The translations under genes and the position numbers were made by a program. A model generated the notes under the pieces. The model saw only the letters and a program-made list of their open reading frames with translations. It searched no databases and was not told the DNA's origin. From Escherichia phage PBECO4, in sequence record KC295538: DNA of 64,000 nucleotides; one strand, written 5' to 3'. Below are positions 18,835-18,916 of the stretch, one piece after another. Numbering within the stretch: the stretch's first letter is position 1; the number at the start of each line of letters is the position of its first letter.

Positions 18835-18916
18835 TGGCCCAGGCGACAGGACTCGAACCTGCATACTCCAGTTACTCGATTAACGACGATTTAGAAGACC
18901 GTTGAGATACGCCCGG
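18835..18916 (-). tRNA. atypical tRNA-like RNA (possible tRNA-Arg UCU-like or stable tRNA-like species)
   Basis: canonical T-arm gcagg-ttcgagt-cctgt, acceptor ccgggcg/cgcctgg (one G-U), 3' GCCA; internal stem-loop acggt-cttctaa-atcgt; no standard D-arm could be folded by eye. Confidence 0.4.

Follow-up and report, generated by a model that had tools for sequence, protein, structure and literature searches.

A probable phage tRNA-Arg(UCU) with a rewired core, its D-arm split and re-threaded around the anticodon arm

Introduction

In circularly permuted and split tRNA genes, such as those of Cyanidioschyzon merolae and Nanoarchaeum, the order of the segments differs from that of an ordinary gene and the product is processed back to a cloverleaf. 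Other tRNAs depart from the cloverleaf as mature molecules. Metazoan mitochondrial tRNA-Ser(AGY/UCU) and the synthetic mini-HisT have no D hairpin and only a short connector between the acceptor and anticodon stems; the mitochondrial tRNAs that lack the D-arm and mini-HisT are truly devoid of the functions of the D-stem and D-loop, and their shape is that of a Y or a boomerang. Mini-HisT works with the unmodified HisRS, EF-Tu and ribosome of E. coli (PMC7609411, PMC11551756), and the translation machinery of this bacterium accepts a D-arm-less tRNA even when the arm is missing completely (PMC11551756). Class II tRNAs (Ser, Leu, Tyr, Sec) and allo-tRNAs, some types of which occur in phages (PMC5389517), have a D-arm and carry extra nucleotides between the anticodon and T arms, which form a separate hairpin. 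A 2024 paper describes all known bacterial tRNAs as canonical cloverleaves (PMC11551756), and no case from a phage appears in a 2020 review on non-canonical tRNAs (PMC7609411).

Here we analyze an 82-nt element of Escherichia phage PBECO4 located on the minus strand of a 64,000-nt stretch of sequence record KC295538, which we refer to as the window. Among its closest known counterparts are the canonical phage tRNA-Arg(UCU) genes (those of T4 and Mooglevirus Sf16 and the 74-nt gene of Asteriusvirus ph0011), with which it has in common the anticodon loop C/U-U-UCU-A-A, a 7/5 acceptor/T branch, A/G73, a GGA(U)A(G) D-loop motif, the position within a tRNA cluster, and the same locus in sister genomes. 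Unlike them, the element has no D-arm hairpin, the 5' strand and the loop of its D-arm appearing to lie 3' of the anticodon arm, and no ordinary variable loop, and it measures 79 nt plus CCA. An earlier note, made from the sequence alone, had considered it a degenerate tRNA, a tRNA-Arg with non-canonical architecture, or a stable RNA of the T4 type. Our analysis favors the second of these readings, namely a phage tRNA-Arg(UCU) with a rewired core in which the D-arm is split and re-threaded around the anticodon arm, and we assign to it a probability of about 0.75.

Results

The element lacks a D hairpin and is overlooked by standard tRNA searches

Read on the minus strand, the element consists of CCGGGCG UA UCUC A ACGGU CUUCUAA AUCGU followed by CGUUAAUCGAGUAACUGGAGUAU GCAGG UUCGAGU CCUGU CGCCUGG G CCA. 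The acceptor stem, T-arm, 3' GCCA and UCU stem-loop reported previously were all found at 18835-18916, as were the segment of about 7 nt in the place of the D-arm (UAUCUCA, exactly 7 nt between the acceptor and anticodon stems), that of about 23 nt between the stem-loop and the T-arm (exactly 23 nt), and the 4-nt spacer (18917-18920) that separates the element from tRNA-Ser(UGA). The parts of the element and its upstream neighbors, with the assignments argued for below, are the following:

18910-18916, minus strand: 5' strand of the acceptor stem, CCGGGCG (tRNA positions 1-7), pairing with 18839-18845
18907-18909, minus strand: connector U8 A9 U, invariant throughout the family
18904-18906, minus strand: 5' strand of helix H, CUC, pairing with 18875-18877
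18903, minus strand: single A joining helix H to the anticodon stem (position 26 equivalent)
18886-18902, minus strand: anticodon arm, stem ACGGU/AUCGU and loop CUUCUAA, with UCU at 18893-18895
18878-18885, minus strand: linker CGUUAAUC, bulging between the 3' strands of the anticodon stem and of helix H
18875-18877, minus strand: 3' strand of helix H, GAG, covarying with 18904-18906
18863-18874, minus strand: proposed D-loop mimic UAACUGGAGUAU, with UAA, GGAG and UAU invariant
18846-18862, minus strand: T-arm GCAGG-UUCGAGU-CCUGU, with the G53-C61 pair and the T54/psi55/C56/R57/A58 pattern
18839-18845, minus strand: 3' strand of the acceptor stem, CGCCUGG, with covariation in a 47-sequence alignment
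18835-18838, minus strand: discriminator G73 and encoded CCA
18921-19010, minus strand: canonical tRNA-Ser(UGA), 4 nt upstream of the element (ARAGORN; 60.1 bits with Rfam)
19021-19048, minus strand: promoter-like site (GGGACA, 16 nt, TG-TATAAT) directly upstream of tRNA-Ser, in a region where the count of such sites is not above the shuffled expectation

The element thus has a 7-bp acceptor stem in which one pair is G-U, an anticodon stem of 5 bp whose 7-nt loop contains U33 and a purine at position 37, a 5-bp T stem and a T-psi-C loop. A D-arm hairpin (stem 10-13/22-25) between position 9 and the anticodon stem is absent. ARAGORN called six tRNAs in the window and the element was not among them, and the Rfam tRNA model RF00005 gave it 29.3 bits, against a gathering score of 29. 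The earlier note would have been refuted by a covariance model that folds the element with a normal D-arm. This did not occur: the RF00005 alignment deleted the D-arm (4 nt for 15 model positions) and placed 20 inserted nt in the variable region. Other members of the family described below scored 31-39 bits, and some, including the member on contig L135 and a variant with anticodon ACG, fell below the threshold. Folding of the single sequence was unremarkable (z = -0.38), and its minimum free energy structure (-21.7 kcal/mol) was unrelated to any conserved structure. The tRNA-Ser(UGA) is likely a co-transcript of the element.

Two further features of this region were observed. At 20040-20112 on the minus strand, ARAGORN calls a tRNA-Gly(UCC) that lies below the gathering score of the Rfam tRNA model and may be another atypical phage tRNA. 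Beginning 24 nt downstream of the element there are two tandem 54-aa ORFs (18485-18649 and 18646-18810, minus strand) that both start with MTHEEWM, overlap at ATGA and, judging from their sequences, are apparently paralogous; relatives annotate three 165-nt ORFs at this place.

The element belongs to a family of phage genes that is often mislabeled

Used as query, the element matched 681 GenBank phage records, 240 of which cover at least 80% of it. The matching phages include SME50 and Felix O1 (both Felixounavirus), BIS47 (Mydovirus), VivaForever (phAPEC8-like), Roth37 (a T5-like Klebsiella phage) and Salmonella phage 7t3, and homologues were thus present in Asteriusvirus, Felixounavirus, Mydovirus, phAPEC8-like and T5-like phages as well as in IMG/VR contigs. 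The window resembles Asteriusvirus-type jumbo phages: in this region its identity to 121Q is about 93%, and it matches Salmonella phage SD-1_S14 and Escherichia phage E9.1 at 100% identity. From GenBank phages and IMG/VR contigs, the latter scanned with a series of patterns, each with another part of the element unconstrained, we assembled a family of 64 distinct sequences in 93 places. When one genome of each of 185,579 prokaryotic species was scanned only four matches were obtained, all on metagenome-assembled contigs, and the family therefore looks restricted to phages. A pattern one nucleotide longer (16 N instead of 15) retrieved from metagenomes four variants that are one nucleotide longer and one chance match, and had no match in IMG/VR. 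A covariance model built for the family separates the rewired members cleanly from ordinary tRNAs: homologues score 81-104 bits (the window element 98) and canonical tRNAs 36.5 bits at most. CCA is encoded in 47 of the 64 members. Columns T8, A9 and T10 are invariant in the gap-free alignment even though the search patterns had left these positions free.

In GenBank the element appears as tRNA-Leu(taa), tRNA-TERM or tRNA-OTHER, lies under a spurious or overlapping ORF, or is not annotated. Records in which the annotation is wrong or missing include KM507819 (121Q), MK773491 (7t3), MT887289 (SME50), KY652726 (BIS47) and NC_005282 (Felix O1). The taa and TERM "anticodons" come from the linker segment. 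Because the gene is missing or mislabeled in hundreds of phage genomes, phage tRNA inventories and studies of codon usage undercount tRNA-Arg. In Roth37 a second gene annotated as tRNA-OTHER (85 nt, contig L010, 1114-1198) aligns with the family at the T-arm only and is not a member of it, the family model giving no match.

Covariation reveals a helix that spans the anticodon arm

To analyze the pairing of the element we used 47 distinct sequences of exactly 82 nt that align without gaps. Overall, 94.8% of the cells of the proposed pairs held standard pairs, versus 32-46% when the partners were slid, and changes on both sides were found in 18 of the 21 pairs. All seven pairs of the acceptor stem change on both sides, with 99.4% of cells paired, and compensatory changes occur at all five pairs of the anticodon stem. 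In the T-arm 98.7% of cells are paired and three of the five pairs show compensatory changes, its closing G-C pair and the loop UUCGA being invariant. In addition to these classical stems, the three bases CUC that follow U8-A9-U pair with the GAG located directly 5' of an invariant UAANUGGAGUAU, forming a helix that the earlier note had not recognized and that we named H. This helix is 100% paired in the alignment, without a single unpaired cell, and contains 18 cells with double changes versus 2.9 in shuffled alignments; sliding the partners by 1-3 columns leaves 8-40% of cells paired. The pair between columns 12 and 41 is UA in 35 sequences, AU in 9 and GC in 3, and that between columns 13 and 40 is CG in 41, GC in 3 and UA in 3. 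Across the 64 sequences of the family, helix H occurs in nine Watson-Crick triplet states (CUC/GAG, CAC/GUG, CGC/GCG, CAU/AUG, CAG/CUG, CGG/CCG, CUU/AAG, CCC/GGG and CGU/ACG) with no mismatch. The equivalent of position 26 is A in 50 of these sequences, C in 10 and U in 4, and a C or U here pairs with the final linker base, which extends helix H to 4 bp (CAUC/GAUG, CAGC/GCUG, CGUC/GACG or CGGU/ACCG).

Helix H was not predicted by RNAalifold, which returned the three classical stems only, or by nearest-neighbor energies, which were -17.7 kcal/mol with the helix and -18.8 kcal/mol without it; support for helix H is therefore purely comparative. On this comparative basis we regard a secondary structure that includes helix H, in a family specific for Arg, as shown with very little room for doubt. 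The statement that the element has no recognisable D-arm consequently needed to be refined. There is indeed no D hairpin, but the 7-nt and 23-nt segments, taken jointly, form a covarying substitute for the D-stem that is followed by a strand resembling a D-loop.

Three other pairings were tried and discarded. Pairing of CUC with the GAG inside UGGAGUAU, combined with a GUUA/UAAC hairpin, left 15 cells unpaired and had no compensatory change. A pseudoknot of UUA (34-36) with UAA (43-45), stacked on helix H, was not followed by the linker variants with UCAA, which leave UAA unchanged. Finally, in a variable-arm hairpin formed by 33-36 and 43-46 the closing pair 33-46 was unpaired in 12 of the 47 sequences and no change was compensatory. 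The linker itself varies in sequence (CGUUAAYC, CAUCAACG, CUAUAAAUC, or UCA in the ACG variant) and is 3-9 nt long. Hence, the self-contained variable-arm hairpin that distinguishes class II tRNAs is not borne out in the family, and the 7-nt and 23-nt segments do not constitute a replacement loop plus a long variable arm.

Helix H implies a permuted order of the D-arm along the chain

Since helix H joins the three bases after U8-A9-U to the three bases before the invariant strand, the order of the segments along the chain is permuted with respect to that of a normal tRNA. Judged by chain position, CUC at 18904-18906 corresponds to the 3' strand of the canonical D-stem (positions 23-25), and GAG at 18875-18877 is the equivalent of its 5' strand (10-12). 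The order is then acceptor, D-stem 3' strand, anticodon arm, linker, D-stem 5' strand, D-loop mimic and T-arm, or, in tRNA numbering, [1-9][D-stem 3' strand, 26, anticodon arm][linker][D-stem 5' strand, D-loop][46-48-like][T-arm, acceptor 3']. Compared with a normal tRNA, residues 10-21 have thus been shifted to the 3' side of the anticodon arm. Such an order could have arisen through partial duplication in tandem and two subsequent deletions.

Within the strand that follows helix H, UAA, GGAG and UAU are invariant even though the search pattern had left them free, and only positions 16 and 17 vary. We propose to read it as U(13) A14 A15 N16 U17 G18 G19 A20 G followed by UAU (approximately 46-48), and we infer from this model the assignment of its bases to tertiary partners, including the placement of a U at the Y48 position. 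Variants on contigs L089 and L163 read UAAUUGGAUAG, which resembles the D-loop of canonical phage tRNA-Arg, AAUUGGAUAG.

In canonical tRNA, positions 22-25, 26 and 27-31 form one continuous strand, and across from it the 5' end of 10-13 lies against 39-44; the base triples 9-12-23, 45-10-25 and 46-22-13 bring 9 and 23, 45 and 10, and 46 and 22 into contact. The same coaxial stack of the D and anticodon stems could form in the element, with the linker merely joining 44 to 10, and all three altered joins (9 to 22, 44 to 10, and 21 to 46-48) would link residues that are adjacent in the canonical fold. Because of this neighborhood, an L shape with a normal elbow is plausible: the U8-A14 and A15-U48 layers, the elbow between G18G19 and the T-loop, and the overall L could all be kept. 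This preserved L-shaped core is a model. Its proposed tertiary partners (U8, the A14/A15 mimic, GG and the U48 mimic) never vary in the family, so sequence covariation says nothing about the tertiary arrangement.

Anticodons and identity elements point to arginine

All anticodons of the family are those of Arg: UCU in 63 of the 64 sequences and CCU in one, with ACG in the additional short-linker variant (contig L008). The anticodon loop is CUUCUAA in 60 sequences, CUUCUAC in 3 and UUCCUAA, that of the CCU member, in 1. Position 35 is always C and position 36 is U or G. The discriminator is G in 34 sequences, A in 25, U in 4 and C in 1, that is, A/G73 in 59 of 64 (92%). The invariant GG is always followed by A (UGGAG), a likeness at the level of sequence to the GGA(U)A of canonical D-loops. 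Bacterial ArgRS is known to recognize A20, C35, U/G36 and A/G73 (PMC9976931), and all these determinants seem to have counterparts in the rewired family, the A of the mimic being the candidate for A20. In the element they would be the A after GG (the A20 equivalent), C35, U36 and G73. It is probable that the element is co-transcribed with tRNA-Ser(UGA), cut by RNase P and charged by the ArgRS of the host. It would then read AGA (and AGG), codons that are common in the AT-rich phage and poorly served by the host. Among the Arg codons of the 72 long ORFs of the window, 68 of which are on the strand of the element, AGA accounts for 26.5% and AGG for 4.9%. In the Felix O1 genome paper AGA was over-represented and the expected tRNA was not found (PMC3185647); this phage carries the rewired element, unannotated, at 25951-26032. 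We infer from these sequence features that the element functions as a charged, decoding tRNA-Arg, a role that they strongly suggest.

Two IMG/VR loci deserve separate description. On a contig of 247 kb (L008), the rewired tRNA-Arg at 2689-2766 has ACG as its anticodon and a linker of just 3 nt; its neighbor is a canonical tRNA-Arg(UCG), and a standard rewired copy with UCU is present on the contig as well. Contig L163 has two rewired genes (12999-13080 and 13348-13429), one with anticodon CCU and the other a divergent UCU copy in which helix H is weaker and the D-loop mimic (UAAUUGGAUAGAACAU) is longer and closer to the canonical form; this divergent copy is miscalled by ARAGORN as a 98-nt tRNA-Arg. 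Their cluster of 28 tRNAs also contains a GOLLD RNA (RF02032, 176.5 bits) at 5748-6218.

The rewired gene alternates with canonical tRNA-Arg(UCU) at the same locus

In the 78 loci analyzed the rewired element always lies within a tRNA cluster, with all neighboring tRNAs on the same strand. Only one of the 24 clusters that carry it and have at least 15 tRNAs also contains a canonical tRNA-Arg(UCU). In Asteriusvirus, the canonical 74-nt tRNA-Arg(UCU) stands beside tRNA-Ser(UGA) in 10 genomes and the 82-nt form occupies this place in others, with homologous flanks. A blastn search with the canonical Asteriusvirus gene found these 10 genomes only, and none of them has the rewired form. The same alternation occurs in Ounavirinae, where the slot between tRNA-Ile and an HNH gene contains a canonical tRNA-Arg(UCU) in Mooglevirus Sf16 and the rewired form in Felix O1 and SME50. 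The two forms are not strictly exclusive, since contigs L155 and L093 carry both.

HNH homing-endonuclease ORFs were observed next to this slot. Within the set of loci L181, L009, L010 and L183, those of Roth37 and Sf16 lie directly against the Arg(UCU) slot at its 3' end, and those of Felix O1 (L181, 26003-26395) and SME50 overlap the slot, so that they adjoin or overlap it whether the rewired or the canonical gene is present. Replacement of one allele by the other, and transfer from one phage family to another, could be mediated by these ORFs.

Discussion

The results described above back, among the three readings of the earlier note, that of a tRNA-Arg with non-canonical architecture, through the covariation of its stems, the restriction of its anticodons to Arg and the alternation with the canonical gene at one locus. 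An unlikely alternative is that the element is a structured and conserved tRNA-like RNA without a decoding role. It might then take part in the processing or regulation of the tRNA operon, or serve as a decoy or sponge whose target is a tRNA-Arg-directed nuclease, a modification enzyme or ArgRS. In favor of this alternative, charging of the element is a prediction from sequence, two contigs retain a canonical tRNA-Arg(UCU) as well, and phage tRNAs are known to counter tRNA-cleaving defenses (PMC11555353, PMC12445682). Moreover, the element and the host tRNA-Arg(UCU) have the same anticodon loop (table in PMC12482277), as would be the case for a decoy. However, a decoy would need neither a 7/5 acceptor/T branch with A/G73 and CCA nor a mimic of A20, and it would be unexpected for a decoy to have taken the place of the canonical gene, at a shared locus, in two lineages of phages or to be the only gene with a UCU anticodon in 23 of 24 large clusters. 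Anticodon variation confined to Arg also argues against this possibility.

We consider it very improbable that the element is a tRNA-Leu(UAA) or an ochre suppressor, as annotated in 121Q and 7t3, or a class II tRNA with a plain loop in place of the D-arm. GenBank annotations are in favor of such readings, and the window sequence could form a 4-bp GUUA/UAAC hairpin. However, the linker, where the supposed anticodons are located, is variable in both sequence and length and has no flanking covarying stem, while the stem that presents UCU covaries at all five pairs. The hairpin itself loses its closing pair 33-46 in a quarter of the aligned sequences (12 of 47), and the UCAA variants change U35 to C with A44 unchanged.

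There is next to no chance that the element is a decaying pseudogene, that is, a tRNA-Arg that lost its D-arm and gained an insertion. The failure of ARAGORN to call it, an Rfam score at threshold and unremarkable thermodynamic folding would fit decay, but the element is conserved as 64 distinct sequences in unrelated phage families with compensatory changes in every stem, the part that would be the insertion hardly varies, the element is present almost in full length in at least 240 GenBank phage records, and it alternates with an intact canonical tRNA-Arg(UCU), all of which speak against the degenerate tRNA proposed earlier. Equally negligible is the proposal of a small stable RNA co-processed from the tRNA cluster like species 1 and 2 of T4 (rnaC and rnaD), since these RNAs, despite sharing the cluster location and, in the case of rnaC, a tRNA-like 3' acceptor/T domain, are of different size (139 and 119 nt) and architecture, have no Arg anticodon arm and no sequence relation with the element, and obtain with the family model 18.9 bits (rnaC) or no match (rnaD), versus 98 bits for the window element.

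Comparison of the rewired tRNA-Arg with the other atypical tRNAs places it apart from each of them. Like mitochondrial tRNA-Ser(AGY/UCU) and mini-HisT, the element is without a D hairpin and joins its acceptor and anticodon stems through a short connector; unlike them, it keeps a covarying D-stem substitute and what appears to be a D-loop mimic containing GG, is longer and not shorter than a normal tRNA, and is cytosolic and phage-encoded. With class II tRNAs and allo-tRNAs it shares the extra nucleotides between the anticodon and T arms, but in the element this segment pairs with the 5' D-region, and its acceptor/T branch is the standard 7/5 and not the 8/4 or 9/3 of allo-tRNAs. In contrast to permuted tRNA genes, nothing suggests that the RNA is rearranged, and, as the covarying helix H implies, the permuted connectivity is that of the mature RNA. 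None of the systems compared builds its D-stem across the anticodon arm, and the element would thus be a tRNA with a new topology. Our search of the full-text literature, which included literal sequence strings and had subscription-only papers outside its scope, found no description of this architecture.

We can only speculate on why such a topology would be maintained. It could be an adaptation by which a phage tRNA-Arg escapes something that recognizes the normal architecture of the D-arm and variable loop, a proposal that we regard as doubtful. Candidates for the evaded agent, equally speculative, are a host defense nuclease that targets tRNAs, the toxin of a competitor, or the attack of the phage itself on host tRNAs. 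Charging by the host ArgRS would still be possible, since this enzyme needs little beyond A20 and the anticodon. If true, the escape proposal would account for the Arg-specific design, for the repeated displacement of the canonical allele, and for the horizontal spread among unrelated enterobacterial phages, often beside HNH genes.

If the element is charged and used, it is a tRNA with a permuted secondary-structure topology whose tertiary core is apparently kept, and a natural counter-example to the cloverleaf, considered universal outside organelles, that operates with the unmodified translation apparatus of E. coli or Salmonella. This would mean that the real constraint on a tRNA lies in its three-dimensional layers rather than in the connectivity of the chain. 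The rewired tRNA-Arg would then also offer a ready scaffold for orthogonal or engineered tRNAs and a test case for the evolution of RNA folds by segment transposition.
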